A stretch of DNA of 26,193 nucleotides, taken from assembly GCA_035545855.1 (NCBI GenBank), contig DASZXK010000167.1:1-26193 (forward strand). Direction: 5' to 3'. Positions 5,037 to 25,832 of this stretch are shown piece after piece. Position 1 is the stretch's first letter; each line of letters begins with the position of its first letter. The DNA comes from Polyangiaceae bacterium. GTDB taxonomy: Bacteria; Myxococcota_A; Polyangia; Polyangiales; Polyangiaceae. Position numbers and translations under genes: made by a program. The notes under the pieces are model-generated. The model had not been told where the DNA came from, searched no databases, and was given only the letters and a program-made list of their open reading frames with translations.

Positions 5037-5924
5037 ATGGCCACGACGTTCACCGGCACGTACACGGCGCTCGTGACGCCGTTCGTCGCGGACGGCTCCG
5101 CCGTCGACTGGGGCGCGTTCGATCGCCTCGTGGAAGCGCAGATAGAGGGCGGCGTGAGCGGTCTCGTGCCGTGCGGGAGCACCGGGGAGACTCCGACCCT
5201 GAGGCAGGAGGAGCAGCGCGAGGTCGTCCGCCGCACGGTCGCCGTCGCACGCGGCCGGGTCCCCGTGATTGCCGGCACCGGAACGTACGACACGACGACG
5301 ACGATCGAGGAATCCCGCGCCGCGCTCGAGGCGGGAGCGACGGCCGTGATGATCGTCATGCCGTACTACAACCGCCCGAACCAGGAGGGGCTCTTCAGGC
5401 ACGTGGAGCGCGTCGCGAAGGCCGTGCGCGGTCCGGTGGTCCTCTACAACATCCCGGTTCGCACGGGGGTGAACCTGGAGGTGGAGACGCTCCTCCGCAT
5501 CCTGGACGCTTGCGAGAACGTCGTCGGGCTGAAAGACGCTTCCGGCAACGTGCTCTATTGCCAGGCGCTCGCCGCCGCGGGAAGCCGCTGCACGGTGCTC
5601 TCCGGTGACGACGCGCTGACGGTTCCGATGATGAGCGTTGGCGCGATGGGCGTCATCTCGGTCACGTCCAACCTGTACCCGGGGGAGACGAGCGCCGTGA
5701 CCGGCGCGATGCTCTCGGGAAAGCTCCGGGAAGCGCGAGCGATGCACCTCCGGCTCCTCCCGGTCCACAGCGTGCTCTTCCTCGAGCCGAACCCCGCGCC
5801 GATCAAGGCGGCGCTGTACGCGAAGGGCCGGATGACCGCCGCGGTCCGTTTGCCGCTGGTTCCGCCGAGCGAGGGGACGCTCCGGCGGATTCTCTCCACC
5901 ATCGACGCCTTCGAGGGCAAATGA
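5037..5924 (+). CDS. dapA: 4-hydroxy-tetrahydrodipicolinate synthase
   Basis: N-terminal MATTFTGTYTALVTPF matches the DapA start (FxGsxxAxVTPf). The GSTGE and LYNIPxRTG motifs are present. The ORF is trimmed from the TTG at 4998 to the ATG at 5037. Confidence 0.95.
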   Translation: MATTFTGTYTALVTPFVADGSAVDWGAFDRLVEAQIEGGVSGLVPCGSTGETPTLRQEEQREVVRRTVAVARGRVPVIAGTGTYDTTTTIEESRAALEAGATAVMIVMPYYNRPNQEGLFRHVERVAKAVRGPVVLYNIPVRTGVNLEVETLLRILDACENVVGLKDASGNVLYCQALAAAGSRCTVLSGDDALTVPMMSVGAMGVISVTSNLYPGETSAVTGAMLSGKLREARAMHLRLLPVHSVLFLEPNPAPIKAALYAKGRMTAAVRLPLVPPSEGTLRRILSTIDAFEGK

Positions 5925-6703
5925 AGATCGCATTGCACGGCGCCACGGGGCGCATGGGACTCGCCATTGCTCGTCTCGCGCACGCGGCAGGGGACACCAT
6001 CGTCGGCGCCGCCGCGGCCCCGAACGACCCCGGGCAGGGCAAGGACCTCGGCGAGCTCGCCGGCCTCGGGAGCATCGGCGTCGCGGTGACGGCCGACACG
6101 GCCTCCGCGCTCCTCGGCGCCGACGTCGTCATCGATTTCTCGAACGCCTCCGCCGTCCGCACCCTGCTCGCGCTCGCGAAGCGGGCCAAGGTGCCCGTCG
6201 TGGTCGGCACGACGAACATCGACGACGCGACGCGGGCCGCTCTGGAGGACACGGCGGCGGTCGTTCCGGTCCTGTTCGCGCCGAACATGAGCCTCGGCGT
6301 CCAGGTCCTGGCGGAGCTGGTCGAGACGGCCGCCAGGAGACTCGCGGACTTCGACGCCGAGATCGTGGAGATCCATCACCGGAAGAAGGTGGATTCGCCG
6401 AGCGGCACCGCGAAACGGCTCGCGGAGGCCGTCCGCGCGGCGCGTCCGAATTCCCGTGAGATCCATACTCGCGCGGGCGACGTCGGGGCCCGGACGGACG
6501 ACGAAATCGCCGTGTTCGGCGTCCGCGGCGGTGACGTCGTCGGCGACCACACGGTGTACCTCTTCGGCGCCGGAGAGCGCATCGAGCTCACCCATCGCGC
6601 GTCGAACCGGGACCTCTTCGCCCACGGCGCGCTCCGCGCAGCGCGCTACGTCGTCGGCAAGAAGCCCGGTCGCTACACGATCAAAGACGTGCTCGCCGAG
6701 TGA
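5921..6703 (+). CDS. dapB: 4-hydroxy-tetrahydrodipicolinate reductase
   Basis: MKIALHGATGRMG is the N-terminal Rossmann motif of DapB. The conserved EIVEIHHRKKVDSPSGTA segment is present. ATGA overlap with dapA indicates an operon. Confidence 0.95.
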   Translation: MKIALHGATGRMGLAIARLAHAAGDTIVGAAAAPNDPGQGKDLGELAGLGSIGVAVTADTASALLGADVVIDFSNASAVRTLLALAKRAKVPVVVGTTNIDDATRAALEDTAAVVPVLFAPNMSLGVQVLAELVETAARRLADFDAEIVEIHHRKKVDSPSGTAKRLAEAVRAARPNSREIHTRAGDVGARTDDEIAVFGVRGGDVVGDHTVYLFGAGERIELTHRASNRDLFAHGALRAARYVVGKKPGRYTIKDVLAE

Positions 6704-6770
6704 CCGGACCCCACCCCTCCCGCGGTCTCGACTCGCCGTCACGGCGCGGCAGCGGCGAGGACGCAGGTGG

Positions 6771-6990
6771 GGGGACGTCGCCGATCGGATAGTTTGTATA
6801 CAAACTGTCCGGCGCGGAGAGAGTCCGGCGCGGAGAGAGTCCGGGGGGAGCAGCGAGGGGGCGTCGCGATCGGATGGTTTGTATACAAACTGTCCGGCGC
6901 GGAGAGAGTCCGCGGGAGCAGAGAGTTGGGGCGTCGCGTTCGGATGGCTTGCGTGCAAGCTGTCCGGGGCGGAGAGAGCGAGGGAGCACA
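6771..6990. repeat. Three tandem direct repeats (units about 86, 71 and 65 bp) in the dapB/lgt convergent intergenic region. Two copies carry the perfect 16-bp palindrome AGTTTGTATACAAACT. The third is degenerate (GCTTGCGTGCAAGC).
   Basis: Direct reading gives unit 1 at 6771-6856 (with an internal 16-bp duplication of GGCGCGGAGAGAGTCC), unit 2 at 6857-6927 and unit 3 at 6928-~6990. The shared core is GGGG(A/G)CGTCGC(C)GATCGGAT(A/G)GTTTGTATACAAACTGTCCGGCGCGGAGAGAGTCCG. Palindromes sit at 6790-6805 and 6878-6893. Confidence 0.85.
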
Positions 6991-7040
6991 CGAGCTCGGA
7001 GCGCGGGCCGGATGCCGAGCCCGGGCTCGCCGATCTCCGC

Positions 7041-8006
7041 TCAGTGGCCGAACTCTTCGTCGACGTCTTTGTCGCGCTTCGGGGCGTCCGCGGAGCCCTC
7101 GGTGGACTCTTCCGCGCTCGCCTTCTCTTCCGTCTCGGCTTCGGTTGCGGCGGCTTCGTCGTCTGCGTCCGTGTACCAGTGCGCGGGCACCTTCTTCTTC
7201 AGGCTCACGTAGAGGCCGATGTAGCCCGCTGCCGCGGGGATGATGGAATAGATCTGGCCCTCCGTGAGGGGGAGCCCGACGGCCCAGGCCTGATATTCCT
7301 TCACGTATTCGACGAGGAAACGCCCGGTGAAGTAGATGGCGAAGAAGAGCGAGATCATCGCTCCTCGCGGCCGCTTCTCCTCGCCGAGTTTCTTGTCGAA
7401 CAGGTAGAGGGAGAGGAGCACGAGGAGCCCGAGCGCCACTTCGTAGAGCTGGCTCGGGTGCCGGTAGACGATCTGCCCGCGGTCTTCGGGGTTTCGCGGG
7501 AAATAGACGCCCCAGGTCTGATCCGTCTTCCGGCCGACGATCTCCGAGTTGAACCAGTTGCCGATGCGGATCAGCGTGGACCCGAGCCCCGCCGAATACG
7601 AGAAGCGGTCGCACCCCTCGATGAAGGACTGCCGTTTGTGGCGCGTGAACAGCCACATCGCGGCGAGCAGCCCGACGGTGCCGCCATGGCTCGCGAGGCC
7701 GCCTTTGTGGATCATGAAGATGAACCACGGGTCCTCCAGGAAGTGCTTCCACTCGTAGAGGAAGACGTGGCCCACGCGCGAGCCGACGAGCGTGCCGATG
7801 ACTCCGTAGACGACGAAGTCGCTGCCGTCCTCCTCGGAGCCTCCCGCGCGCCGGATCTGCCAGTCGAGGAGCTTGTAGCCCCCGAGGAAGACCCCCACGT
7901 AGAGGAGGCTGTAGTAGCGGATCCCGTCACCCGGGAGCGGCAGCCACTTCGGGTAGTAGAGGAGGATGGGGTCGATGTCCCAGGTGAACTTGGGAAGCCA
8001 GTGCAT
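7041..8006 (-). CDS. lgt: Prolipoprotein diacylglyceryl transferase
   Basis: The Lgt signature GGLASHGG (G-x-x-H-G-G) is present, with multiple TM segments. The C-terminus is an acidic tail (DADDEAAATEAETEEKASAEESTEGSAD). Confidence 0.9.
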   Translation of the reverse strand: MHWLPKFTWDIDPILLYYPKWLPLPGDGIRYYSLLYVGVFLGGYKLLDWQIRRAGGSEEDGSDFVVYGVIGTLVGSRVGHVFLYEWKHFLEDPWFIFMIHKGGLASHGGTVGLLAAMWLFTRHKRQSFIEGCDRFSYSAGLGSTLIRIGNWFNSEIVGRKTDQTWGVYFPRNPEDRGQIVYRHPSQLYEVALGLLVLLSLYLFDKKLGEEKRPRGAMISLFFAIYFTGRFLVEYVKEYQAWAVGLPLTEGQIYSIIPAAAGYIGLYVSLKKKVPAHWYTDADDEAAATEAETEEKASAEESTEGSADAPKRDKDVDEEFGH

Positions 8007-8140: not shown

Positions 8141-10465
8141 TCACGGGGAAGCGGGAGGCGTTCCCGTCTGTTCCCGCGTGAACGCGGACTTTCCCGTCAG
8201 GTACTGGAGCAGCGCGAGGGACATGAGGGGGTTCTGATCGGCGCCGCCGCCACCCCCGCCTCCGACGTACACGTCGGGGATGAGCTTCAGGTGGCTCGCG
8301 GCGATCTTCTCCACCACCTGGATCTGGCCGAAGACGTCGTTCCCCATGGCGTTCACCTGGAGCTTGTAGCTCTCGGCCGTGCTCTTGCCCTGCTCCATGA
8401 TGACACGGGCCTCGGCGAGACCCTTCTTCTCGATGGCCTCCGCGTCCGCGATCGCGTTGACGCGCGTGGCCTCGGCCGTCGCGCCGGCGGCGAGCTTCGT
8501 GGCCTTGGACGAGCCCTCCGCGCGGATCTCGTTCGCGCGCGCGTCGCCGGTCGATTTCTCGATCTCCGCGTTCGCGAGGTTCTTGGCGATTTCCACGCCT
8601 CGCTCGGACTCCACGACCTTCGGCTGCATGTTCGCCTGCGCCTTCGCGTTCTCGAGGAGCTTCCGCTCCTCCTGCGCCTGCTTCTGCGTCGCGAACGTCA
8701 TGCGCTCCTGCTCGGCGATCTGACGATCCGTCACCGTGCGCGTGAGCTCCGGCGGGAGCACGACGTCGGCGATCATCGTGTCCTTGCTCTCGATGTGGTG
8801 AATGCGGAGGACCGCCTGGATGTGCTCCTTCGCCCGGCTCTGGAGCTCCGCTCGCTTCGTGTAGAGGTCGAGCGCCTTCACGGACTGGGCGGCGTTCCGG
8901 AAGTGCGACGAGATCGCCGGTTCGAGGACCTGGGAGATCAGGTTGTCGACCGACCCCAGGTTCGCCACGACCTTCGGCGCGTCCGCCATCGCGATGTGGA
9001 TGATGACGGACACGTCCATGCTGACGTTGAAGGCGTCCGCGGTGCGGAGGGTGATCGTCTTCAGGTTCGAATCCAGCTTGTGCGCGCTGGACTCGTTGTC
9101 CGCCCAGTTCAGGAGAATCTGGGTCGTGAGAACCTTGTCTACCTTGCACACCTTGGTGTTGATGGGGTGCTTGCCGGGGCCGAGCGGTTCGGCCCAGATG
9201 CCGCGCTTGCCGTTCCGGACGATCTTCGCGTTCACGTCCGCGGACGTGGTGTCCTCCCCCTCCTCGCCGACGAAGCTCGTCACCACGGCGCACTCGCCGA
9301 TCTTCACCTCCACCATGGGGACCTGGTCGATGGACGCGAACCACGGGTTGATCGCGTAGTTGCCCGAGCGGAGCACCGGGATCTGCAGGCCCTTCTGCCC
9401 GCCCGCGGCGAGGAACGCCGCCGGGTTCTGGAAGTTGTTGTGGATCTCGAGCGAGATCTCGTCCGCGGCGATCTTGGCCGCGTCGCTGATCGGCCGGCCC
9501 TCGAGCACCGTGACGATGCCGACGGAGTCCGCCCCGATGTGCGTCCACGGGACGACCGCGCTGATCACGAAGAGAGACGTGTTGATGCGGTACGTGCCCG
9601 GCATCAAGACGTCGAGCTGGTGTCCCTTCTGCCCCCCGTTCCGGAGGAACCCGTTCCCGTCCTCGAAGTTCGAGTGGCCCTCGATCTTCCGACCGAGGAG
9701 GTTCCCTTCCGCGATGCGCGCCCCGTCCATCGCCGTCACGAGGCCGACGTGGCCGTTCGGGATGACCGTCTGCTCGCGCTTGTCGACCCGGAAGAGCGCC
9801 GTGTTGATGCGATAGCTCCCGGGCGGGAGCACCTTCACCTGCGGTCCCTTCTGCCCGCCGTTGTGGAGGAACGCGTCCGCGTCCTGATAGGCGTCGCACT
9901 CGACGGGGTCCGCGAAGATGCGTCCGACGGGGCACGGCTGTCCCGCGACGGCTTCCACGACGCCGATCTCCGTCTCGTCGATGAGGACGGCGTTCGTGAT
10001 CTCCGTCGCGAAGAGCTCCGGATTGATCTGGTACTCGCCCGGCGGCAGGATCGCGAGCTGCGGACCCTTCTCGCCGCCGTTCTTCAGGAACGCCTCGCCG
10101 TCCTGGAAGAGGTTGCACGGCACCGTCTTCGCGAAGAACTGCCCGGCGGGCATCGGCATGCCGGTGATGGCCCTGACGATTCCGATCTGGTTCGTCCCGA
10201 TGGAGATGAACTTGTGCTTGCTCACCTTGTAGATGAACGGAATGAGGAAATGCACGCCGGGTCCGAGCGTCCGCGCCTGGACGCCCACCTCGTGACGGAG
10301 CGCGACGGTCCTGCCGTCCGCCATCTGGGCGCCGAACCAGCGCCGCTCGAGCGTGATGAACTGGTCGCCGCGCGCGATCGCGATGCTCGAGAACAGGAAG
10401 ACCAGCCCGCAGAGCCCGCCGAGCACGATGGCCACGTTTTCCAGCGTGAGCATTCCCTCCAACAT
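8141..10465 (-). CDS. Flotillin/SPFH (band 7) family membrane protein with a reiterated N-terminal module
   Basis: N-terminal TM (VAIVLGGLCGLVFLFSSIAIA). SPFH beta segment TLGPGVHFLIPFIYKV. C-terminal SPFH helix plus a long Glu/Ala/Lys-rich coiled-coil flotillin region and a GGGGGGG tail. ATG at 10465 is preceded by GGAGGAATC. Between the first SPFH strands and the helical half lie 4-5 repeats of about 75 aa. Confidence 0.85.
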   Translation of the reverse strand: MLEGMLTLENVAIVLGGLCGLVFLFSSIAIARGDQFITLERRWFGAQMADGRTVALRHEVGVQARTLGPGVHFLIPFIYKVSKHKFISIGTNQIGIVRAITGMPMPAGQFFAKTVPCNLFQDGEAFLKNGGEKGPQLAILPPGEYQINPELFATEITNAVLIDETEIGVVEAVAGQPCPVGRIFADPVECDAYQDADAFLHNGGQKGPQVKVLPPGSYRINTALFRVDKREQTVIPNGHVGLVTAMDGARIAEGNLLGRKIEGHSNFEDGNGFLRNGGQKGHQLDVLMPGTYRINTSLFVISAVVPWTHIGADSVGIVTVLEGRPISDAAKIAADEISLEIHNNFQNPAAFLAAGGQKGLQIPVLRSGNYAINPWFASIDQVPMVEVKIGECAVVTSFVGEEGEDTTSADVNAKIVRNGKRGIWAEPLGPGKHPINTKVCKVDKVLTTQILLNWADNESSAHKLDSNLKTITLRTADAFNVSMDVSVIIHIAMADAPKVVANLGSVDNLISQVLEPAISSHFRNAAQSVKALDLYTKRAELQSRAKEHIQAVLRIHHIESKDTMIADVVLPPELTRTVTDRQIAEQERMTFATQKQAQEERKLLENAKAQANMQPKVVESERGVEIAKNLANAEIEKSTGDARANEIRAEGSSKATKLAAGATAEATRVNAIADAEAIEKKGLAEARVIMEQGKSTAESYKLQVNAMGNDVFGQIQVVEKIAASHLKLIPDVYVGGGGGGGADQNPLMSLALLQYLTGKSAFTREQTGTPPASP

Positions 10466-10579
10466 GATTCCTCCGAGTAAAAGGGACGGACGCGCGCCAA
10501 GGACGAGGGCACGCGAGAACCGAGGAGCGTCCGTCACCCCCGGGCGGGGTTCAAGAGGGTTTCCGTGGAACGGGACGTT

Positions 10580-11212
10580 TCAAGGGACGAGCGCCGAAAG
10601 GATCGGAGCGGGATCCTTTCCGAGCCCGTCGCTTCGCACCAGGACGCGCCCCTGGGCGTCCAGGAGGACGATCGCCGTCGAGTGGTAGAATTCGCCGTTG
10701 TCGAGCTTCCTGTAGCGGATGCCGAGCACGGCGGCGAGCTGTCGCGCGTCGTCTTCGGCGGCGCTCGCGAACGTCCATCGCGAAGGGTCGAGCGAGCGGC
10801 GCGCCATGAGCCGCGTGAGCACCTCGGGTGTGTCCCTCGCGGCGTCGAAGCTCACCATCAAGATCCTGAGGTTCTCGCGCTCGGGCTCCGGGACCAGGCG
10901 ATCGATCTTCTCCAGGTCGCTCGTGAGCATCGGGCACACGTTCGGGCAGCCCGCGTAGAACATGGAGATCAACACGGGGTGGCCACGGAACTCGTCGAGC
11001 GGCTGCCGTTTCCCGTGCTCGTCCGAGATCTGGATCTGGAGGTCGTAGACGGAGACGCCGTTCGCCGCGTCCTCCGCCGGAGGCCGTACCGGCGGCGTCG
11101 GGGCGGCGCTCGGGGACGGAGCTTCGGTCGCGGCGTCCGTCGAGGGGGCTCGTCCGCAGGCGACGAGGCCGGAGAGCAGGGCGGCGAGGGTAGCGGTACG
11201 GAACGGGTTCAC
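10580..11212 (-). CDS. SCO1/SenC-family thioredoxin-like copper chaperone, lipoprotein
   Basis: CxxxC motif FYAGCPNVCP with a downstream conserved His (YHSTAIV). Signal peptide plus lipobox LSGLVAC. The GTG start at 11212 overlaps the stop of the upstream gene (GTGA). Confidence 0.85.
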   Translation of the reverse strand: MNPFRTATLAALLSGLVACGRAPSTDAATEAPSPSAAPTPPVRPPAEDAANGVSVYDLQIQISDEHGKRQPLDEFRGHPVLISMFYAGCPNVCPMLTSDLEKIDRLVPEPERENLRILMVSFDAARDTPEVLTRLMARRSLDPSRWTFASAAEDDARQLAAVLGIRYRKLDNGEFYHSTAIVLLDAQGRVLVRSDGLGKDPAPILSALVP

Positions 11213-12000
11213 GGTTTCCTCTCGATCTCTTTCACGCACCGGAAACCGAGCCGGGACGTCGTGTAGCGGGCTTCGAGCGAACTCCGGAATGCGATGCGCA
11301 TGAACGCCGCGTAGTCGCTGGGGTTCTGGGCGTCGGCACCGGCGCCGCCGCAGAAGCGCGTCTGGTCGACGACCCCTTTCTCGCGGGAGTCCATCGTGAC
11401 CAGGCTCGCGCCGAAATCGTAGACCCACTCCCACACGAGGCCGTGGAGGTCCCGGATGCCCCAGAAGTTCGGCTTCGAACCGCCCACGTCGGCGAGCGGC
11501 CTGGCGGACGTCGGTTCGGCGTACCAGGCGAGCACGCGTTCGGTCCACGCCGGGTCATCGGCTCCCCGCGCGGACGAGTCACTCGCCGCGGCGGCGAGCT
11601 CCCACTGCCGTTCGGTGGGAAGCTCGGCCCCGCGCGCCTTGCAGTACGCCTTCGCCGAAAACCAGCTCACGTTCGTCACGGGAGCCGCCGGACGAACGGA
11701 CGCGCCGAGGCGTTCGGCGTCTTCCCAGTGCGCGAGGTAGCCGAAATCCGCGAAGAGAGGCTTCACCCGATCGCGCCGCCACTCGGGCCGCTCGTGCACG
11801 AACGCGAGGAAGGCCTGGTTCGTGACGGGCGTGACGTCCATGTAGAACGCGGGCACCTTCACCGTGCGCTCCGTCGGCGAGGCGGGGTAGAGCGGCTCGT
11901 ACACCCCGGGGCCGACGCGCGCCATGCCCCGCGGCGCCCGCTCGCCGAGCGCGGGAGCCGCGAGGAGCACGCCGAGGAGCGCGATCCGCCAGGGGATCAA
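11209..12000 (-). CDS. nirV: NirV-like protein of the formylglycine-generating-enzyme (FGE)-sulfatase family
   Basis: FGE/SUMF1-type motifs: [28 protein letters not shown], and [22 protein letters not shown]-terminal signal-like [15 protein letters not shown]. Lies immediately downstream of nirK, as in known nirK-nirV operons. The start is uncertain. A candidate TTG at 12000 overlaps the nirK stop (TTGA). Confidence 0.72.
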
Positions 12001-13505
12001 ATGCCTGCTCCGCTCGAGCCCGAAGCCCGGACGCGCGCGACCTCGGCGGGCGAGACCACACCGTGGTCGTTCCCCCACGAGTTCAGGACGTACGTGATGA
12101 CGTTCGCGATGTCGTCGTCGCCGAGGTGGCTCCATGGCGGCATCGTCGAGTTGAACGTCGCTCCGTTCACGCGGATCGGACCCGTGAAGCCGTTCAGGAC
12201 CGTCGAGATGATCTTCGTCTTCTCGTTCTTCACGAGGTAGTCCGAGCCTGCGAGCGGGGGGAACGTGTTCGGCATCCCGAGGCCGGTCGCCTGGTGGCAG
12301 GTGATGCACGTCGTCGCGAACACGGATTTGCCGGCCGCGATCTGCTGCTCCTTGGTGAGAGGCCCCGAGGTGGGCTGCGTCGCGGCGAGGATCTGCGCCG
12401 GAGCCGCGGACTTTTCTGCCACGTAGGCCGAGTCCGCCTCCTTGCCCGAATAGACCACCGCGTCTTCGGGCCCGGAGACCTTGAGCGTTCCGACGGCGCC
12501 CTTGTTGAACGCGCGGAAGAGGGAATGGTCGACGATCGCGTACGAGCCGGGAACCTGGAGCTTGAACTCGGCCATCGTCGTGCCCCCGGCGGGCACCATC
12601 GTCGTCTGGACGTTCTCCTGGACCTTCGAGCCGCCCTCCGGATAGATGCGGTCGAAGATCTCCCCGATCACGTGGAAGCTCGACGTGAGGTTCGGTCCAC
12701 CGACGCCGAAGTAGATCCGCACGGTGTCGCCGACGTAGGCCTTCAGCGCCTTGTCGCCGAGGAGCGAGCCCTCGGCTCCGTTGAAGACGACGTACGTGGG
12801 TCGTTCGTCGATGCCCTTCTGCATGTCGAACGCTTGAAGACCCTTCTCGTGGTACTTCCCCGTGGTGTAGACGTCGCCCTGCATGACGTAGAACTCGCGG
12901 TCCACCGGGGGGAGGCCCTCCGGCGGCTCGACGAGGATCATCCCGTACATTCCGTTCGCCACGTGCATCGGCACCGGCGCCGTCGCGCAGTGGTAGACGA
13001 ACAGGCCCGCGTTCAGCGCGCGGAACGTGAACTTCGATTCGTGTCCCGGCGCCGTGAAGCTCGACGCCGCGCCTCCGCCGGGGCCGGTCACGGCGTGGAG
13101 GTCGATGTTGTGCGGCATCTTGCTCGAGGCGTCGTTCTGGAGGTGGAACTCGACGACGTCCCCCTGGCGCACGCGGATGAAGCTTCCGGGCACCGTGCCT
13201 CCGAACGTCCAGAAGTCGTACTGGACGCCGTCCGCCACCGGCAACGTGACCTCCTTCACGGCGAGCTTCACCACGACGTGCGCGGGCTTCGTGCGGTTCG
13301 TCGCAGGCGGCACGTTCGGAGGCGAGGTGAGCTGCGCGAGGATCGGTTCACCCGTCGGAAGACTCGTGACGTCGAGCTCCGGCTTCGCGGGCGTCGTCGC
13401 CGACGGTTTCGGGCGTACGGTATGTTCGGAAGGAGTCTCGCTGCATCCGAGCGACAGCAGAGCGAGGGAGGAGAGCGCGGTTCCAAATCGTCCGACGTGT
13501 TTCAT
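11997..13505 (-). CDS. nirK: Copper-containing nitrite reductase NirK with a fused C-terminal mono-haem cytochrome c domain
   Basis: Cupredoxin motifs PHNIDLHAV and [18 protein letters not shown] supply the type 1/type 2 Cu ligands (H, C, H, M). The C-terminal domain carries the CITCH haem-binding motif. N-terminal signal peptide with Cys (LLSLGC), so it may be a lipoprotein like Neisseria AniA. ATG at 13505 (a GTG lies immediately upstream). Confidence 0.9.
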
Positions 13506-13757
13506 CACGGGCGAGCAAAAGCACCCGCCGTGCCACGGGCGATTTTCCTGCGTCTCGCGATGGAGCCGATGTGCGCGGGGCGCAGATCCTTCGCGCTCGC
13601 GCAGCGGGGTCGTGCGCAGAACGTGGTCACGTGCCCTACGGGGCGCACCCGGTGCGCCTGCCCCGTCGATCCTCTTCGAACGCCGAGAGCAGATTCTGCG
13701 CGTTCGCACGAAATGAGATCCGTCGCCCGTCGAGCCGCGAGGACCGGATCCGGAGCT

Positions 13758-14147
13758 CTACTCGCCCGTGGGACGCGGTGGGTCCGGCGGAGCGCCCGCG
13801 TCGCCGCTCGCCGGCTCGGTTCCGGGCCGCTTCAGCCCGGCGCCGAACGAAAGGGGTTCGTGCTCCGGCTTCGGTGGCGATGGCTTCGCGGACGACCCCG
13901 AAGGCTTCGGCGCGGATCGCGGAATGAGCCCGGCCTTCCACGCCGAGCCGGTCGACGGAGGACCCTGCCGGAAGAGCGCCGCGTCCCCCGGACGCGTTCC
14001 ACGGCTACCCGGCGGATCGAGCTGACTCGACCCGTAGCACTGCGTGCCGTACTTCGGCCCCGACTGACAGTACGTGTCCACGCAGGCGGCGACGAGCGCG
14101 GACGAGACGCAGAGAGACAGGACGCCCGTCAGCGAAGCGGCTCTCAC
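13758..14147 (-). CDS. Small secreted Cys-rich lipoprotein with a Pro-rich C-terminus, hypothetical
   Basis: GTG at 14147 gives a signal peptide with lipobox (RAASLTGVLSLCVSSALVAAC) followed by VDTYCQSGPKYGTQCYGSS. Third-codon GC read by hand is about 85%. It shares orientation with nirK and is directly upstream of it. The full track ORF (to 14336) is rejected because it would abut the divergent gene's start. Confidence 0.45.
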   Translation of the reverse strand: MRAASLTGVLSLCVSSALVAACVDTYCQSGPKYGTQCYGSSQLDPPGSRGTRPGDAALFRQGPPSTGSAWKAGLIPRSAPKPSGSSAKPSPPKPEHEPLSFGAGLKRPGTEPASGDAGAPPDPPRPTGE

Positions 14148-14338
14148 GGACGATCGGATAGCACGCTCCGCGAGCGATCCGGGCTGGCCGGGGCGTCTCT
14201 CGCCGGGGAACTGCACCGAAGAGGGCCCCGCGACTCGCCCCCAGGGAGAAACCGGAGCCGGCGCCACACGCCGCGTGCCTGCCCGGCCCCTGGTCCGGTG
14301 ACTATCGGCTGGTCCACGCCCAGGAGAAATACCCAAAA

Positions 14339-15400
14339 ATGCTCGCTTTTCGCCCCCGTGCCGCCGTCTTCGCCGTTCTCGGCTCCGCGCTTCTGGCCGT
14401 CGCCTGCGGAGACGACGCTTCCACCGCCGCCGCTCACCGGCCCGGCGGGTCGCTCGACGGAACGGGAAGTGGCGCTTCCGTGACGCCCGGCGCTGGCGGC
14501 TCGGTGAGCCCGGGTGCGGGCGGAGCGATCTCCACCGGCGCGGGCGGCACGACGTCCGGGAGCGGGGGTGAGACGTCCGCCGGCACGGGCGGCTGGCAGG
14601 AGCTCACGTTCACGAGCGACACGTTCACGGTAGCCGCCGGGGACGAGGTGTACCGCGCGCAGAACTTCGCGAACCCCATCGGTCACGACGTCGACATCAT
14701 CGAGAGCGAGTCGACGATGGCGAAGGGCTCGCACCACATGTTCGCGTTCCACGGCGCTAGCTACAATCAGGACGGCGCCATCGGGGACTCCACGGGCATC
14801 GAGTTCGCTCCGTACATCCACACCGCGCAGACGCCGGAGCAGCTCACTCGTTACCCCGCCGGCATCGGCCGCTACCTCCCGGGGGCAGACGGCATCCGGC
14901 TCCAGGTCCACTACATCAACACGTCGGATCAGGACATCCAGGCGTCCGTCTCGCTCCGCATCCGCTACGTGAACACCGATCAGGTGACGTTCCATGCCGC
15001 GGAGATCTTCCTGAACGACGTCGGCGTCCGCGTCCCGCCGGGCACGAGCACCGCGACGACGACCGTGAGCATGCCTTACGACGTGAAGCTCCTCGGCGCG
15101 GGGAGCCACATGCACCGGCGCGCCGTCGGCTTCGACTCCACGACGAACGACGGCCGCGAGATCTACACGACGACGGACTGGAACGAGCCCGTCGCGGCCG
15201 CGTTCGACCCGACGATCGACATCGCCCAGGGCGGCAGCATCACGTGGTCCTGCACGTACGACAACCAGACTGGCCAGACGCTCACCTTCGGCGAGTCCGC
15301 GGCCACGAACGAGATGTGCATCTTCAGCGGCGTCTACTACCCCGCGCCGAACGGCGCCGGCATCACGCGGCAGTGCCTCGGCCGCGGGTCGTGCTTCTGA
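14339..15400 (+). CDS. Secreted lipoprotein with a Gly/Ser/Thr-rich linker and a putative PHM/DBH-like type II copper monooxygenase domain
   Basis: Signal peptide plus lipobox LLAVACG. Low-complexity linker (GAGGSVSPGAGGAISTGAGGTTSGSGG). Then SHHMFAFHG (HHM, residues 132-134), H191, GSHMHRR (HxH, 257/259) and NEMCIF (M326). The spacing and local context match the CuH (HH..H) and CuM (HxH..M) sites of peptidylglycine alpha-hydroxylating monooxygenase. Confidence 0.55.
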   Translation: MLAFRPRAAVFAVLGSALLAVACGDDASTAAAHRPGGSLDGTGSGASVTPGAGGSVSPGAGGAISTGAGGTTSGSGGETSAGTGGWQELTFTSDTFTVAAGDEVYRAQNFANPIGHDVDIIESESTMAKGSHHMFAFHGASYNQDGAIGDSTGIEFAPYIHTAQTPEQLTRYPAGIGRYLPGADGIRLQVHYINTSDQDIQASVSLRIRYVNTDQVTFHAAEIFLNDVGVRVPPGTSTATTTVSMPYDVKLLGAGSHMHRRAVGFDSTTNDGREIYTTTDWNEPVAAAFDPTIDIAQGGSITWSCTYDNQTGQTLTFGESAATNEMCIFSGVYYPAPNGAGITRQCLGRGSCF

Positions 15401-15421
15401 GAGATCGCCGGTAGGCGAAGG

Positions 15422-15445
15422 GCCCCGCACGTTGGCCCGCGGGGC
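15422..15445. terminator. GC-rich hairpin between convergent genes (GCCCCGC-N10-GCGGGGC), a possible bidirectional terminator
   Basis: 7-bp perfect stem read directly. Located 22 bp after the stop of the 14339 gene and 13 bp after the stop of the 15458 gene. No U-tract, which is often the case in high-GC genomes. Confidence 0.3.
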
Positions 15446-15457
15446 GGGGGCTTCGCT

Positions 15458-16006
15458 CTACGGCCCGCTTCCGCCCGCGCCCTTGGAAACCCCCTGAGCT
15501 TCCGAGATCAGCGTCTGGATCGTCTCGCACTCGGGGACCTTGCCCGTCTGGACGTTGCCGCACGCCATCTTCGGCACGTCCCGAAGGCAGTTCGCGAGCG
15601 CCTTTTTCTCGGCGTCGTCGAGCTCGGCCTTCGGGGCCTTGTCCTTGAACGTGCGCGTGTTCTTGTAGCAGGCCTCCTGCGTCGGGATCTGCATGGAGAG
15701 CATCATCTTCTGCTGCGGGGGAAGAGCGGAGAGCATCTTCTCCCGGCACGTCGCGACACGCTTGCAGAGCGCCTCGGCGTAGTCGGCCACCCACTTCGGG
15801 ACCTCGATCTTCGCGGGCTCCGCGGAGGGCGTGGGTGTCGGCGTGGGCGCGGGCGTCGGCATGGGAGCCGCCGTCGGGACGAGCGCGGAGAGCGCGCCTT
15901 CGACGGAACTCGCGGTCGGTTTCTTCTCGTCCTTCGAGTCGCATCCCACGCTTGCGGCGAGTGCGACGAGGGTCACGATCAGCTGCCGGGTCGTGTTCGA
16001 AGCCAT
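15458..16006 (-). CDS. Hypothetical lipoprotein with a Pro/Thr linker and a 6-Cys C-terminal domain
   Basis: ATG at 16006 preceded by GGGAGG. Signal peptide plus lipobox (LVALAASVGC). PTPAPTPTPTPS linker. Cys-rich lysine-rich domain. No recognisable family. Confidence 0.6.
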   Translation of the reverse strand: MASNTTRQLIVTLVALAASVGCDSKDEKKPTASSVEGALSALVPTAAPMPTPAPTPTPTPSAEPAKIEVPKWVADYAEALCKRVATCREKMLSALPPQQKMMLSMQIPTQEACYKNTRTFKDKAPKAELDDAEKKALANCLRDVPKMACGNVQTGKVPECETIQTLISEAQGVSKGAGGSGP

Positions 16007-16195
16007 GCTGCCTCCCTGCAAAATCGCCGCTGAGCGGCGTGGGCGGCTCATACTACGGACGGCCGTCCACCGGACCCACCGATCGACGGGCCAGCCCGAT
16101 CGATCCCGGTCCTTCACGGCGGGCTCGATGAGCTCGACGGGCGGGTTGGTCAGGAAGCGGAGGAACGCCTACCCGGCCCCCCGACTCTGAGCTAG

Positions 16196-16300
16196 GCTCG
16201 CTCTCGTCGCTCGGGGCGCGTTTCCCGAAAGGAAAACGCTGAGATGGACCCGTCGAACCTGATCCGGCTCGTACCGGCGTAGGGAAGGCGATCCGAGGGT
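16196..16300 (+). promoter_or_regulatory. TPP (thiamine pyrophosphate) riboswitch, THI element, in the thiC leader
   Basis: Matches the THI-box consensus: GGGGCGCG ... CGCUGAGA ... GACCCGUCGAACCUGAUCCGGCUCGUACCGGCGUAGGGAAGG. The CUGAGA, ACCUGAUC, the pyrimidine-sensing stem and GCGUAGGGA are all present. Lies 40-140 nt upstream of the thiC ATG, with the AAGGAG Shine-Dalgarno downstream of it. Confidence 0.9.
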
Positions 16301-16339
16301 CGTCTTTTCGCGCCGGGTGAGCCCCCAAGGAGCCGAAAG

Positions 16340-18121
16340 ATGACCGACCGCACGTTGCCTCTCCGCGGAGCCGAAAACCCCACGAGCCGGAAGCTCGGCA
16401 CGAACCCCGGATCCTTCGCGAACCGCGCCGACGTCGGCGGACCGCTCTCCTACTCGTCGCCGGACACGCCCGGGATGCCCGCGCCGAGCGAGAAGACGGC
16501 GTGGGACTTTCTGCCGGACGGCTGGGTGAAGCTCCCGGGCGAGGACCGGGCGACCGCGCCCGCCGGCTTCGTCCCGGTGACGCAGCTCGAGCACGCGCGG
16601 CTCGGCGTCGTCACTCCGGAGATGAAGCGTGTCGCCGAGCGAGAGCCGCACCTCACGGCGGAGCAGATCCGGCGCGAGGTCGCGAGCGGGCGCATGATCA
16701 TTCCGGCGAATCGCGTTCACCTTCGTCATTCGCTCGACCCGATGGGCATTGGTCGCGCCACGAAGACGAAGATCAACGCCAACATGGGCGCGTCTCCCGT
16801 CTCGAGCGACACGGAATCCGAAGTGGAGAAGCTCCGCTGGGCCGAGCGCTGGGGCTCGGACACGGTGATGGACCTTTCCACGGGGGGCGACATCGACGCC
16901 TGTCGCGAGGCCATCGTCCGGAACTCCCGCGTGCCGATCGGCACCGTGCCCATCTACTCGATGATCCTCGGCCGGAAGATCGAGGACCTGACGGAAGAGG
17001 TGATCCTCGAGGGGATTCGCCATCAGGCGGAGCAAGGCGTGGACTACTTCACCGTGCACGCCGGGGTCCTCCGCGCGCACCTCCCGTTCGTGAAGGACCG
17101 TCTCATCGGCATCGTGAGCCGCGGCGGATCCCTCCTCGCGAAGTGGATGCTCGTGCACGGGAAGGAGAACCCGATGTACGCGCGCTTCGAGGACATCTGC
17201 GACATCATGCGACAGTACGACGTCTCCTTCTCGCTCGGGGACGGCCTCCGTCCGGGCGGGCTCGGGGACGCCTCCGACGTCGCGCAGCTCTCCGAGCTCG
17301 AGACGCTCGGCGAGCTCACGGAGCGCGCCTGGCGCCGCGGGTGCCAGGTGATGGTGGAAGGGCCGGGGCACGTGCCGTTCGATCAGATCGAGTACAACAT
17401 GAAGCTCCAGCGCCGCGTGTGTCACGGCGCGCCGTTCTACGTCCTCGGGCCGCTCGTGACGGACGTGTTCCCCGGGTACGACCACATCACTTCTTGCATC
17501 GGCGCGACCGCCGCGGCGTATCACGGCGCGAGCCTCCTCTGCTACGTGACGCCGAAGGAGCACGTCGGCCTCCCGAAGAAGGACGACGTGAAGCAGGGCG
17601 CCGTCGCGTACAAGATCGCGGCGCACGCGGCGGACGTCGCGCTCGGCATCCCCGGTTCCCGCGACTGGGACGACGAGCTCACGCAGGCCCGCGCGGCCCT
17701 CAACTGGGAGAAGCACTTCGAGCTCGCGTTCGACGGCGAGTACGCGAGGGCGCTCCACGACGAGGACCTCGACGTGGACACGGACTTCTGCGGCATGTGC
17801 GGCCACGACTGGTGCTCGGTCCGCATCTCGAAGGAGATCGCGGAGTTCGGGAGCGGCAAGGCGGCCGGGTTCTCGCGCGCGGAGGTCACGAAGAGCGCCG
17901 CGCTCACGCCGGAGCAGCAGGCGGTCCTCGAGAAGCGCGGGGTGCTCTCGCCGGAAGAGATCCACCGCCTTGCGTCCAAGACGCGGAAGGCCGTCGGTGC
18001 CGACAAGGGCGCGAAGGCCGCGTGTCACAGCGACTTCGCGGAGCCGGAGGACGCCCAGCGCGTCCAGGAGAAGCGGCTCGTTCGCCTCCGGATCGCGCCG
18101 CCGGCACCGGACGCGGAGTGA
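16340..18121 (+). CDS. thiC: Phosphomethylpyrimidine synthase
   Basis: 593 aa with conserved ThiC blocks throughout and the C-terminal radical-SAM-type cluster motif CGMCGHDWCS. AAGGAG Shine-Dalgarno 7 nt upstream. Preceded by the TPP riboswitch. Confidence 0.96.
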   Translation: MTDRTLPLRGAENPTSRKLGTNPGSFANRADVGGPLSYSSPDTPGMPAPSEKTAWDFLPDGWVKLPGEDRATAPAGFVPVTQLEHARLGVVTPEMKRVAEREPHLTAEQIRREVASGRMIIPANRVHLRHSLDPMGIGRATKTKINANMGASPVSSDTESEVEKLRWAERWGSDTVMDLSTGGDIDACREAIVRNSRVPIGTVPIYSMILGRKIEDLTEEVILEGIRHQAEQGVDYFTVHAGVLRAHLPFVKDRLIGIVSRGGSLLAKWMLVHGKENPMYARFEDICDIMRQYDVSFSLGDGLRPGGLGDASDVAQLSELETLGELTERAWRRGCQVMVEGPGHVPFDQIEYNMKLQRRVCHGAPFYVLGPLVTDVFPGYDHITSCIGATAAAYHGASLLCYVTPKEHVGLPKKDDVKQGAVAYKIAAHAADVALGIPGSRDWDDELTQARAALNWEKHFELAFDGEYARALHDEDLDVDTDFCGMCGHDWCSVRISKEIAEFGSGKAAGFSRAEVTKSAALTPEQQAVLEKRGVLSPEEIHRLASKTRKAVGADKGAKAACHSDFAEPEDAQRVQEKRLVRLRIAPPAPDAE

Positions 18122-23085: not shown

Positions 23086-25689
23086 TCAAACACGGGCGCG
23101 CCGTCTGCTGCGTAGCAGCAGGGCCGCGACGAGCCCCCACGCCGCGGTGGCCGACGAAGTCTTCGACTGTACTGTGCGGCACCCGCACCCACCGGGATCG
23201 ACCGGGAGATGGCTCTGATCGCCCGGCAGCCCGCTAGAATCTGGTGCCGCGCTCGCGTCGTGGCGGTGTCCAGCATCGGGTCGTGAAGGGAGCCCGCCCG
23301 CTTCGCGCGGCATGGATGAATCGAGCCTACTCACGGAGGAGTCGCGGCTCGCCACGACGGCGTCGCGGACTCCGGAGTCCGTTGGCTTCTTGCCGGCGTC
23401 TCCGTCGGCACTCGCGTCTTCCGGGACGGCGCTGTCCGCGATTGCCGCATCGTGCGTGCCGGTCGAGACTGCTCCATCACGGCAACAGTCATCCCCCGTG
23501 TCGCCTGGCCGAGCGTCGCCGGGACTCGCATCGACAGTCGACTCGAGTCCGCCATCAGGAGCGAGGCCGAACAAGCGCAGACCGATCCGTGGTGTCGGAC
23601 CCGCCACGGATGAGAATGCGAACAGCGCTTCCCCTTGAATTCGGCTCGCTCCAGATGTCCACGGGAAAAAGGGCGATGAATCGAAGGTCGCGGGGGGGCC
23701 GAATTCTTCGGCGCTTTCGCTCGCGATGGTCACGCGGCCGCGAGCCGCGCGTCCGTCCCCACCCACGACGAACAACCGTCGACCGTCCGCGATGACGATG
23801 GAGCTGGAGGGCAAGGAATCGCTGAAAACGGGCGTTCCGAAAGTCCAGGATCCCGCTGTCTTCGTCAGAGTCGCGAGTCCGGTGCTGCAGGACAGCACGA
23901 AGCCGGCCCCGACCGGGGCGATTCCGCTGGCCGAAGAGCTGCACGGGGAGCCCAGCGCCTCGGCCGAAGCCCCGCCGGATTCCAGGACGTAGAGCGCACC
24001 GTTGTCGCTGAATGCTTCAGCGGAGCCGTTTTCCGAGAAGGCCGTGATCTGATATGGCGTTCCCGGAATCCCGCGCTCCGGTGCCGCGCCGCCATCCGAA
24101 GAAAGGTCAGTGCGTGCGAGGAAGCCGCCGGAGAAGCTCTTGCATCCATCGCCGCCCTCCCAGTACTCGTGCAGGCCGCCCAAAGTCCCGATCTGGTGTG
24201 CGCCGATGCCATCGAACGGCCCTGCGACGAGCAATGGTCGTGCATCGAGCAAACTCCCATTCGCGGCCATGCGAAGCGCGACGACGGCATCCTTCAGCAG
24301 ACCCCGTTCGATCCAGGTGATCCAGTAGGTCGATCCATCGAACGCGACCTGCGGCTCGACCTGGTCCATGAACGGTTCAGCCGTCCGGCGGGGGAGAACG
24401 AGGGGCGGCGAATCCAGGAAGACGCCCGACGGGGTGACGCGTGTTGCAACGATTTCCGAGCGGCGCCCGCGCAGGCTTTCCCACGCAACGAGGTAGGTCG
24501 AGCCGTCTGTCGCGACGACGGGGGCTGTCTGGCTATCCTCCGCCGTGCGACCGCCGATTTCGACCTCCCGGATGGGAGTTCCGTCCTTCGCGATCCGCAC
24601 CGCGATCGAGTCGTGTGGGCCACGCCAGGTCGCGAGATGGGTGAATCCGTCGAACGCGATCATCGATTCCGTGCCCGTCGCCCAGGGCGACGACGAAACC
24701 GGCGTGACCCCGGAAACCGCACCGTTCGCGATCCGCACGGCAACGACGGTGGAGTCATCACGCGCGAGCACGACGAAGGTTGATCCGTCCGAGTCAGCGG
24801 CGCCGACTCGTTGATCGGGCGCGAGCGTCAGCATCGGCGAGATCGGGGTCCCGTCTTTTGGATCTAGGAACACCGCGCGCACGGCGGTGACCGGTCCGGC
24901 CTTGCACCACACGGATCCATCTGGGTCGGGCGTCGGCGCGGTTGCCGTCCAGGCGTATAGGCATTCGGCGTTCGTGCACGCGAGCGCGGCGGGTTCATAG
25001 AACGCCGTCTCGCCCAGCGGAATGTCCTGCTCGATCTCCGCGCCGTCGGTCTCGCGGACACCCCGAAGTCGCAACTCCTGGCTCGAACAGGCGGTGTCCG
25101 CGCAGGCACGCGCCGCATACCAGTAGTTGCCGCCGCTGAACGCACGACCGTCGATGCGTAGAGTAAAGAGCCCGATGGCCGTGCTTCCGAGGTACGTTCC
25201 GAACGAGTCGAAACGGTTGACGGAACCGTCCCACAAGGCGAATCCGTCAGCCCCGGCAACCGGTAGAGAACCCTGGACGATGGCAACCGGCGTCGTGCTA
25301 CCGGATTGATCGAGCCAAAAGGGCTTCGTCGACATCGCAAGGAACCGGGAACCAATGAAGGCGACTCCGCTTCCACCTCCCGGAATGCCTACGACGTCCA
25401 GGTTCGTGCCGTTTGCATCGATTCGATGGAGGCGGATCCCGGAATCGGTCTGGAGTTCCACGAGCGTCACGCCGCCGCCGGCTGCGATTCCGATCGGCCA
25501 GCTACGGGGTGCGGTGGGCACGGATGCGCCCGGCGTACGCCACTCCTTTGACACGACCGGCACCTCCAAGAGGGGCGCTCTCGTGGTTCCTGTTTCCACG
25601 GACGATCGCGGCAAGGGATCGGCGCAGCCCGAGAGTATCAGGGCGCCGGTCAGTGCCCAGATCCCTTGCAATCGAACCTCCTCGGGCAT
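23086..25689 (-). CDS. Large secreted lipoprotein with internal ~50-aa repeats and a C-terminal MYXO-CTERM-type sorting tail
   Basis: N-terminal signal plus lipobox (WALTGALILSGC). Repeats carry a DGSTYLVAW ... VAxRIxxDGT consensus. The C-terminus is GGCGCRTVQ ... AAWGLVAALLLRSRRRARV (GCGC, hydrophobic stretch, then a poly-Arg tail). 867 aa. Confidence 0.8.
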   Translation of the reverse strand: MPEEVRLQGIWALTGALILSGCADPLPRSSVETGTTRAPLLEVPVVSKEWRTPGASVPTAPRSWPIGIAAGGGVTLVELQTDSGIRLHRIDANGTNLDVVGIPGGGSGVAFIGSRFLAMSTKPFWLDQSGSTTPVAIVQGSLPVAGADGFALWDGSVNRFDSFGTYLGSTAIGLFTLRIDGRAFSGGNYWYAARACADTACSSQELRLRGVRETDGAEIEQDIPLGETAFYEPAALACTNAECLYAWTATAPTPDPDGSVWCKAGPVTAVRAVFLDPKDGTPISPMLTLAPDQRVGAADSDGSTFVVLARDDSTVVAVRIANGAVSGVTPVSSSPWATGTESMIAFDGFTHLATWRGPHDSIAVRIAKDGTPIREVEIGGRTAEDSQTAPVVATDGSTYLVAWESLRGRRSEIVATRVTPSGVFLDSPPLVLPRRTAEPFMDQVEPQVAFDGSTYWITWIERGLLKDAVVALRMAANGSLLDARPLLVAGPFDGIGAHQIGTLGGLHEYWEGGDGCKSFSGGFLARTDLSSDGGAAPERGIPGTPYQITAFSENGSAEAFSDNGALYVLESGGASAEALGSPCSSSASGIAPVGAGFVLSCSTGLATLTKTAGSWTFGTPVFSDSLPSSSIVIADGRRLFVVGGDGRAARGRVTIASESAEEFGPPATFDSSPFFPWTSGASRIQGEALFAFSSVAGPTPRIGLRLFGLAPDGGLESTVDASPGDARPGDTGDDCCRDGAVSTGTHDAAIADSAVPEDASADGDAGKKPTDSGVRDAVVASRDSSVSRLDSSMPREAGGLPSRPDAGHRHDASAAPDSSGLPGDQSHLPVDPGGCGCRTVQSKTSSATAAWGLVAALLLRSRRRARV

Positions 25690-25744
25690 GGGAATGCCTT
25701 ATCCGAAACCCAAACCCGCTGCCACGTCTTGCCCAGGTCGCGAG

Positions 25745-25786
25745 GGATATTCCAGTTTGGAATATCGCCCCTGGAATACCCCCCCC
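25745..25786. repeat. Copy B of the inverted-repeat element, in reverse orientation relative to copy A: GGATATTCCAGTTTGGAATATC (perfect 9-3-9 palindrome) + extra half-site CTGGAATA + C8 tract. About 60-95 bp upstream of the lipoprotein ATG.
   Basis: Read directly. The reverse complement is GGGGGGGG-TATTCCAG-gggc-GATATTCCAAACTGGAATATCC, which matches copy A (G8 + spacer + GATATTCCAAACTGGAATA). Confidence 0.8.
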
Positions 25787-25832
25787 TGCATCTTGCTGCG
25801 TGCCGCTCGCGCCGTCAGGCTCGCTCGCGCCA

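Follow-up and report, generated by a model that had tools for sequence, protein, structure and literature searches.

A Tandem Array of Three Palindrome-Bearing Units Between the Convergent dapB and lgt Genes of a Polyangiaceae Bacterium

Introduction

Extragenic palindrome clusters of the REP/BIME type consist of imperfect palindromes of 25–35 nt whose hairpins differ between the strands, with proposed roles in stabilising the upstream mRNA and limiting read-through. REPs occur as tens to hundreds of dispersed copies with a GTAG/CTAC foot, usually in alternating orientation within BIMEs, and are accompanied by RAYT genes. The operators of GntR/HutC regulators follow the loose palindrome pattern (N)GT(N)xAC(N), and sopC of the F plasmid is made of tandem 43-bp direct repeats with a 16-bp inverted repeat in each.

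Here, we describe an array of tandem repeats on a contig of a metagenome-assembled genome (MAG) from an uncultured Polyangiaceae bacterium. The window, i.e., the whole stretch of DNA analysed, is the complete contig of 26,193 bp and has a GC content of 68.9%. The array lies in the 3' region of dapB, in the same sense as this gene, and occupies most of the 337-bp gap (6704–7040) between dapB and lgt. The convergent orientation of the two genes and the length of the gap, as given in a first-pass annotation of the same DNA, agree with the Pfam assignments and the coordinates. DapB is 100% identical to an NCBI protein labelled 'MAG TPA Polyangiaceae bacterium', and a protein 100% identical to Lgt is present in NCBI and Logan.

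Results

Three direct units make up the array, with 46-nt cores that are 100, 98 and 76% identical and start-to-start spacings of 85 and 70 bp (Table 1). TRF assigns to the array a period of 70 and a score of 224. The cores of units 1 and 2 differ by one mismatch in 46 nt; a 36-nt block is identical in both (6792–6827 and 6877–6912), and the two sequences diverge afterwards. Unit 1 is longer because GTCCGGCGCGGAGAGA, an internal 16-bp duplication that TRF resolves as 2.4 copies with 100% identity at 6807–6844, is perfectly duplicated and doubles the tail motif of this unit. The GGCGCGGAGAGAGTCCG tail (repeat family D2) is reiterated across the array, and SD-like and anti-SD-like tracts are found once per unit. 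The three units, the extra duplication in unit 1 and the reiterated motif at the unit ends had all been recognised in the first-pass annotation, and its proposal that the array expanded by slippage or recombination is in agreement with the perfect 16-bp duplication and the graded identity of the units. It had also held that the array is not CRISPR-like, which is correct: the 'spacers' are themselves repeated, the periods are 85 and 70, and a search of the window for cas genes gave none.

A covariance model of the three units has one full-length match to each of them in the window (Table 1). All else that it matched in the window with E below about 0.1 was partial, on the minus strand and confined to the palindromes of these units. 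A putative fourth, decayed unit at 6981–7040, ending in a GC-rich palindrome, was rejected as unproven, with an alignment p of about 0.1 and no covariance-model match. The array is non-coding, because its periods are not multiples of 3, so that the reading frame differs in each unit, and because the ORFs crossing it have no Pfam match.

Table 1. Positions of the repeat units and flanking features in the window.
Feature	Position	Strand	Description
dapB	5921..6703	+	4-hydroxy-tetrahydrodipicolinate reductase; Pfam DapB_N, DapB_C; upstream flank
GC-rich stem-loop	6709..6775	+	CCCCACC...GGTGGGG around CTCGCCG...CGGCGAG; from the MFE fold of the gap and the sequence; outside the repeat
Unit 1 (85 bp)	6762..6844	+	core 6782–6827; near-palindrome CGGATAGTTTGTATACAAACTGTCCG 6786–6811, perfect 16-mer 6791–6806; covariance-model match 6762–6826 (83.2 bits)
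Unit 2 (~70 bp)	6845..6912	+	core 6867–6912; near-palindrome CGGATGGTTTGTATACAAACTGTCCG 6871–6896, perfect 14-mer 6877–6890; covariance-model match 6849–6911 (90.4 bits)
Unit 3 (~69 bp)	6913..6981	+	core 6937–6982, 76% identical; near-palindrome CGGATGGCTTGCGTGCAAGCTGTCCG 6941–6966; covariance-model match 6919–6981 (82.4 bits)
GC-rich perfect 14-bp palindrome	7016..7029		CGAGCCCGGGCTCG; adjoins the lgt stop; outside the repeat
lgt	7041..8006	-	prolipoprotein diacylglyceryl transferase; Pfam LGT; convergent downstream flank

The palindrome of unit 1, AGTTTGTATACAAACT, is perfect over 16 bp. That of unit 2, GGTTTGTATACAAACT, is perfect over 14 bp only, so the identical 16-bp palindrome previously assigned to both units is present in unit 1 and not in unit 2. 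The two centres lie 85 bp (~8.1 helical turns) apart and not 88 bp (~8.4 turns) as had been proposed; the next spacing is 70 bp (~6.7 turns), and the sites therefore share no common helical phase. The 26-nt near-palindromes have the consensus CGGAT(A/G)G(T/C)TTG(T/C)(A/G)T(A/G)CAA(A/G)CTGTCCG.

By length alone, a perfect palindrome of 14–16 bp is not remarkable in this window. Perfect palindromes of at least 14 bp number 11, the two of the array included, and the longest palindrome reaches at least 16 bp in most mononucleotide shuffles of the window. What sets the two apart is that they are AT-rich, recur in the repeat and extend into a hairpin of 26–34 nt (fold z −4.3 to −5.7). The contrast of an AT-rich palindrome with GC-rich DNA, already pointed out in the first-pass annotation, is real, with about eight AT-rich 14-nt islands in the 26 kb, two of which are the palindrome cores. 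The AT-rich 14-mer GTTTGTATACAAAC is present twice in the window, where 0.04 occurrences would be expected, and a count of two was not attained in any of 100 shuffles. With up to three mismatches allowed, the palindrome has no additional copy ahead of a gene within the 26 kb.

Folded as RNA, the plus-strand hairpins have a stem of 12–13 pairs and a 4-nt loop, with energies from −14.8 to −17.6 kcal/mol (−16.1 kcal/mol and z −5.7 for unit 1). The minus-strand hairpins have just 4 + 5–6 pairs with internal loops and energies of −9.5 to −11.9 kcal/mol. Whole units fold at −27.1 (unit 2) and −25.5 kcal/mol on the plus strand, versus −16.3 and −15.1 kcal/mol on the minus strand. The flanks UCGCG...CGCGG extend the plus-strand stem to 17 pairs with one bulge, which in unit 2 is a bulged A. 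In this 17-pair model, 98% of the cells pair, and the non-Watson–Crick pairs of the plus strand are without exception U·G or G·U. The same positions are A·C on the minus strand; the 17-pair stem is confined to the plus (dapB-sense) strand. For the gap as a whole, the predicted fold is more stable than those of shuffled sequences on either strand (z −4.2 and −4.7). The predicted asymmetry is the best clue that the plus strand would be the one to matter, should a folded single strand have a role. The G·U bias could, nevertheless, be accounted for by the G-richness of the plus strand of the array alone (GC skew about +0.35).

The palindrome of unit 3 differs from that of unit 2 by five transitions, all from AT to GC, four of which form two symmetric T-A to C-G pairs and one of which is central. 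The symmetric changes look compensatory, which is weak evidence when drawn from three paralogous copies. As a sign of selection on the hairpin they are not significant: the covariation score of the three units was matched by 178 of 500 shuffles, and five random transitions kept all 11 stem pairs Watson–Crick or G·U in 16% of simulated trials. One of the symmetric double changes (T-A to C-G) affects the innermost positions, which sit in the loop of the would-be RNA hairpin, and fits DNA-level symmetry better than RNA pairing. Of the functions suggested in the first-pass annotation, a structured RNA or RNA hairpin is the candidate that best suits the strand asymmetry.

The hairpins are followed by GGCGCGG on the plus strand and by ATCGCGA on the minus strand, and no U-tract follows any of the three on either strand. 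Canonical intrinsic termination is not predicted because of this, and the bidirectional terminator suggested previously finds no backing in its canonical form. A scan of 6400–7400 gave no terminator-like site within 6704–7040 and no promoter-like site in or near the array. The stem-loop just past the dapB stop in the predicted fold and the palindrome next to the lgt stop may be the 3' hairpins of these genes themselves; both GC-rich hairpins lie outside the array, where each flanking gene would have kept its own.

Among the window ORFs scanned, no DNA-binding regulator, GntR domain, recombinase, transposase, Y1-transposase/RAYT or ParA/ParB was identified. The paired operator of the first-pass annotation is not supported: the array is enclosed by the 3' ends of two genes, promoter-like sites are lacking, the two spacings are out of helical phase, and no GntR protein was found among the window ORFs. 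The fit to the GntR/FadR pattern T.GT-N-AC.A, on which it was based, is generic. To our knowledge, and as compared by eye, the palindrome does not fit the LexA box, parS, dif, the attC core, the sigma-54 promoter or the PsrA, HipB and NrdR boxes. The feet of the hairpins read TCGGAT...GTCCGG and contain no GTAG/CTAC. Transposon ends were considered and rejected: terminal inverted repeats are absent, and the flanks of the gap show only a 9–12-nt repeat at chance level. A target-site duplication was rejected as well, since its candidate, the 9-bp GCTCGCCGA at 6691 and 7025, does not exceed chance and would interrupt the end of dapB.

In the data searched, the array is unique. Neither the palindrome with up to three mismatches nor the covariance model revealed a second locus of the unit in the 26-kb contig. 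No Rfam 15 family matches the array at gathering or permissive thresholds; in the whole window, only a TPP riboswitch preceding thiC (16202–16303) reaches the gathering level, and the best match within 6500–7250 is a plant miRNA model with 22.9 bits against a threshold of 168. We scanned 185,579 species genomes with the pattern CGGATNGNTTGNNTNCAANCTGTCCG, in which 20 of the 26 palindrome positions are fixed, and obtained 4 single matches in unrelated MAGs, which is about chance level (~1 chance match expected). Three of these are non-palindromic at the free positions or occur in other contexts, and a true palindrome is present only in locus L002. No related copy was found in the species-representative genomes searched, Polyangiaceae included. 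In JGI metagenomes, with many Polyangiaceae contigs, a search with a free stem and the conserved 3' flank gave 4 chance matches and no hairpin. Two scans of viral contigs gave 0 matches, and blastn against plasmids and phages gave short matches at E ~0.8 or none. A dispersed REP-like family, another option of the first-pass annotation, hence draws no support from any collection searched.

The six-frame translation of the array had 0 matches at E ≤ 10 among 5.8 billion proteins. The two matches of one frame among 1.84 billion representatives are true repeat proteins of great length, of beta-helix type and Ig-like, and were judged spurious. Run against 16 loci, the covariance model found only the units of the array, the copies in an independent assembly of the locus (L014, below) and palindromes that had been picked by the pattern scans. 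Apart from unrelated sequences, a literature search for TTGTATACAA returned nothing but cloning sites of the Gateway attB5 type, and one for REP and Myxococcus returned nothing relevant.

L002 (MAG W2P18.022, SFVC01000044.1) belongs to an unclassified bacterium, and a 40-bp sequence occurs in it as two direct repeats at a distance of 125 bp. Both copies include a palindrome that is identical to that of unit 1 at 24 of 26 positions and shares its ATAG/CTGT asymmetry. The repeats flank a TTACAA-N17-TATAAT-like sequence between two divergent genes, one for a small serine recombinase (Mpi/invertase-like) and one for TnpB. The likeness is limited to the palindrome: the covariance model matches at positions 23–48 only, and the flanks are unrelated. 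We take L002 as a lead for explanations that invoke a protein site or a mobile element, and not as evidence of homology.

The closest relatives for which DNA is available have 75–80% identity in DapB or 84% in Lgt. Ten relative loci (L005–L009, L015–L020) gave no covariance-model match below E ~0.01, and a conserved cis-regulatory element of dapB or lgt is absent at the orthologous position in the ten loci. A different gene follows dapB at 25–80 bp in each relative with DNA: thiC in L005, the gene of an unrelated secreted protein in L009, methyltransferase genes in L017, L019 and L020, and a hexapeptide transferase gene in L018. For relatives with 75–80% DapB identity, the next gene lies 25–36 bp past dapB. 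Past the 84%-identical lgt of L015 and L016, the sequence is unrelated. The first-pass annotation had named absence from close relatives as an argument against a regulatory role, and in the close relatives examined the array is indeed absent.

The conserved neighbourhood consists of dapB, lgt, thiC, hsp33, glyS and an aminotransferase gene, and has been rearranged repeatedly. The gene order around dapB, lgt and thiC differs among L005, L017, L018 and the window. In L018, dapB and lgt are separated by three sugar-modification genes that the window does not have; the window, in turn, carries an insertion of ~8 kb with copper-related genes between lgt and thiC. The rearranged gene order therefore places the array at a lineage-specific junction, that is, at a synteny break. 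The idea that the array is a remnant of the genes that intervene between dapB and lgt in the relatives was dismissed, since tblastx and blastn gave compositional noise only.

An independent assembly of part of the locus is available in Logan (L014; SRR12170516, 4,444 bp). Its lgt is identical to that of the window, and it matches the window exactly for 158 nt past the lgt stop, up to its end at 6883 inside unit 2; unit 3 is thus reproduced fully and unit 2 by half. The Logan assembly graph presumably has k = 31. Built from the lgt side, such a graph must end at 6883, because the last 31-mer that includes the unique base 6913 spans 6883–6913. The break at this position therefore reproduces the tandem order of units 3 and 2 and a second context of the 36-nt block. 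Two contexts for the block 6877–6912 are expected if units 1 and 2 both exist. Only the MAG contig shows unit 1 next to dapB, and users of the MAG should be aware that the adjacency of dapB and lgt runs across a repeat at which an independent assembly breaks.

Discussion

We tentatively favour, as a reading that may well be right, that the array is a lineage-specific local tandem duplication of a hairpin-bearing, non-coding segment of ~70 bp at the rearrangement-prone dapB/lgt junction, with hairpins that are at most RNA 3'-end structures. Unit 3 would have split from the common ancestor of units 1 and 2 in an old duplication, with cores that have since diverged by 24%; that ancestor would have been duplicated again recently into units 1 and 2, and a slippage of 16 bp would then have doubled the tail of unit 1. 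Unequal crossing-over or slippage could have been the route of duplication. Were dapA–dapB transcripts to read through past the dapB stop, the plus-strand RNA would have three stable stem-loops of 12–17 pairs, G·U included. By likeness to clustered extragenic palindromes in other bacteria, these could act as 3'-end barriers or stabilisers of the dapA–dapB mRNA, and as insulators against read-through antisense into lgt. In this reading, the array is neither an operator nor, in the data searched, one of a dispersed repeat family. It may have little or no selected function, and might just as well be selectively neutral.

Another reading, which we consider unlikely, is that a dimeric protein encoded at another locus binds the DNA of the units, which would then make up an array of operators or decoys, a partition site akin to a centromere, or a recombinase site in the form of an imperfect 26-bp palindrome with TA at its centre. 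Each unit does provide a 26-bp twofold-symmetric site with an AT-rich centre, one of the symmetric changes of unit 3 is at the innermost pair, for which an RNA hairpin has no need, and the layout resembles sopC-type centromeres and is found at a synteny break. However, no regulator, ParA/ParB, recombinase or transposase was identified among the window ORFs, the array has gene 3' ends on both sides and no promoter-like sequence, the spacings (85 and 70 bp) are out of phase, and no copy is present at the other putative inversion breakpoint, after thiC. In addition, 5 of the 14 core positions are altered in unit 3, which would normally abolish sequence-specific binding. The 24/26 palindrome that occurs twice in L002 beside a serine recombinase and TnpB would be in line with a protein site, but the match leaves out the flanks and came from a scan likely to yield about one match by chance, and no similar site was found in viral contigs, plasmids and phages. 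A bolder proposal, in our view very improbable, is that GGAYRGNTTGTATACAANCTGTCC is the recognition site of a novel DNA-binding or recombination protein common to distant bacteria, and that the array marks a recombination or centromere-like hotspot and is not a passive duplication. If this were true, the palindrome in common with the recombinase/TnpB locus of L002 would be a protein site tied to the rearrangements at the junction.

The TnpB gene next to the palindromes of L002 also bears on a mobile origin, in which the units would derive, as copies or remnants, from a small element of mobile or REP/MITE-like type that is dispersed elsewhere in the genome; the contig might then even have been joined through the repeat, and dapB and lgt need not be neighbours. 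Like REPs and the ends of IS200/IS605, the units have an imperfect hairpin that differs between the strands, the junction is unique to this genome, and the Logan assembly breaks exactly at the shared 36-nt block, which thus has at least two contexts in the sample. Units 1 and 2, however, fully explain both contexts, no second copy is present within the 26 kb or in the species genomes and JGI metagenomes, and a GTAG/CTAC foot, terminal inverted repeats and a convincing target-site duplication are absent; we regard this origin as improbable. More doubtful still is that the array encodes one or more independent trans-acting small RNAs as tandem paralogues, with the purine-rich plus-strand tails GGAGAGAG or the minus-strand tracts CUCUCUCC as candidates. 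The fold scores of the hairpins (z −4.3 to −5.7) and of the whole gap on both strands, and the recurrence of SD-like and anti-SD-like tracts in each unit, would be in line with such RNAs, but promoter-like sites, a terminator and an Rfam match are lacking, no homologue emerged from the searches, the relatives show no conservation and the covariation is not significant. As it stands, the array is an orphan, lineage-specific intergenic tandem repeat without conservation or a partner gene, and matters little in itself. Should the unit prove to be dispersed in the complete genome, it would represent a new REP/MITE-type family of Myxococcota.

Compared with known systems, the array shares with sopC the tandem direct repeats and the 14–16-bp palindrome in each unit, and differs from it in having no parA/parB (sopA/sopB) nearby, only three unequal units and a chromosomal housekeeping context; the palindrome is also unrelated to the parS consensus. 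As in GntR/HutC operators, TTGTATACAA fits the loose palindrome pattern, but the sites are placed between 3' ends without a promoter, with out-of-phase spacings and with no GntR-family gene in the 26 kb. The repeats of L002 belong to an unrelated host and, unlike those of the array, are arranged around a promoter-like site between divergent genes. Stable stem-loops past both stop codons are reminiscent of intrinsic terminators, whereas the array has no U-tract and triplication is not a terminator feature. The closest kind is the REP/BIME-type extragenic palindrome cluster. The dispersal, the GTAG foot and the RAYT gene of that class are missing from the data searched, the array being limited to three direct copies at one locus, with no GTAG and no RAYT gene in the window, but it has in common with the clusters of Enterobacteria and Pseudomonas a set of hairpins of the same type gathered between convergent genes.

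Structures flanking the array and its continuity in the assembly

Both convergent genes are followed by GC-rich hairpins or palindromes that lie outside the repeat array, the one after lgt having the sequence CGAGCCCGGGCTCG. Because dapB and lgt thus each possess a putative 3' structure of their own, the array represents extra material between the two. In an independent Logan assembly of run SRR12170516 (L014, 4287-4444), the assembly end falls exactly on window position 6883. The assembly graph, which we take to be k=31, must break at this point because a 36-nt block is common to units 1 and 2, and the continuity of the MAG contig over the array therefore rests on repeat resolution by the MAG assembler.

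Features in the window and in L002 (SFVC01000044.1)
Feature	Position	Strand	Remarks
GC-rich hairpin/palindrome, dapB	6709-6775		immediately after stop codon
GC-rich hairpin/palindrome, lgt	7016-7029		immediately after stop codon
Three internal DNA repeats (~220 bp)	9344-10105	-	67-75% identity; within 798-aa Band7/SPFH gene
TPP riboswitch	16202-16303	+	70.5 bits, exceeds gathering score
40-bp direct repeats, L002	6882-6921 and 7007-7046		two copies

Genomic neighborhood

The dapB/lgt/thiC neighborhood is rearranged in every relative examined. Only in the window genome, compared with the related loci L018 and L017, is lgt separated from thiC by ~8 kb of genes (8141-16117: Band7/SPFH, SCO1/SenC, a multicopper oxidase-cytochrome c fusion and a Cu-monooxygenase-like gene), and it lacks the three sugar-modification genes that separate dapB from lgt in L018. 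The TPP riboswitch is directly upstream of thiC (16340-18121). The DNA repeats in the Band7/SPFH gene imply a repeated N-terminal protein module, for which no Pfam match was found.

Other palindromic elements

Upstream of an 867-aa ORF (23086-25689, minus strand), the intergenic region contains an AT-rich inverted repeat, GATATTCCA-GTT-TGGAATATC, with a third half-site, TGGAATAC, after it (window 25743-25790). This element looks more like a genuine operator than the dapB-lgt array does.

In the unrelated MAG W2P18.022 (L002), both direct repeats contain a 26-bp palindrome that is identical to window unit 1 at 24 of 26 positions, with a promoter-like TTACAA-N17-TATAAT site between them. The repeats and this site are located between the genes for a small serine recombinase (Mpi/invertase-like) and TnpB, and the repeats could serve a mobile element as a recombinase or repressor site.
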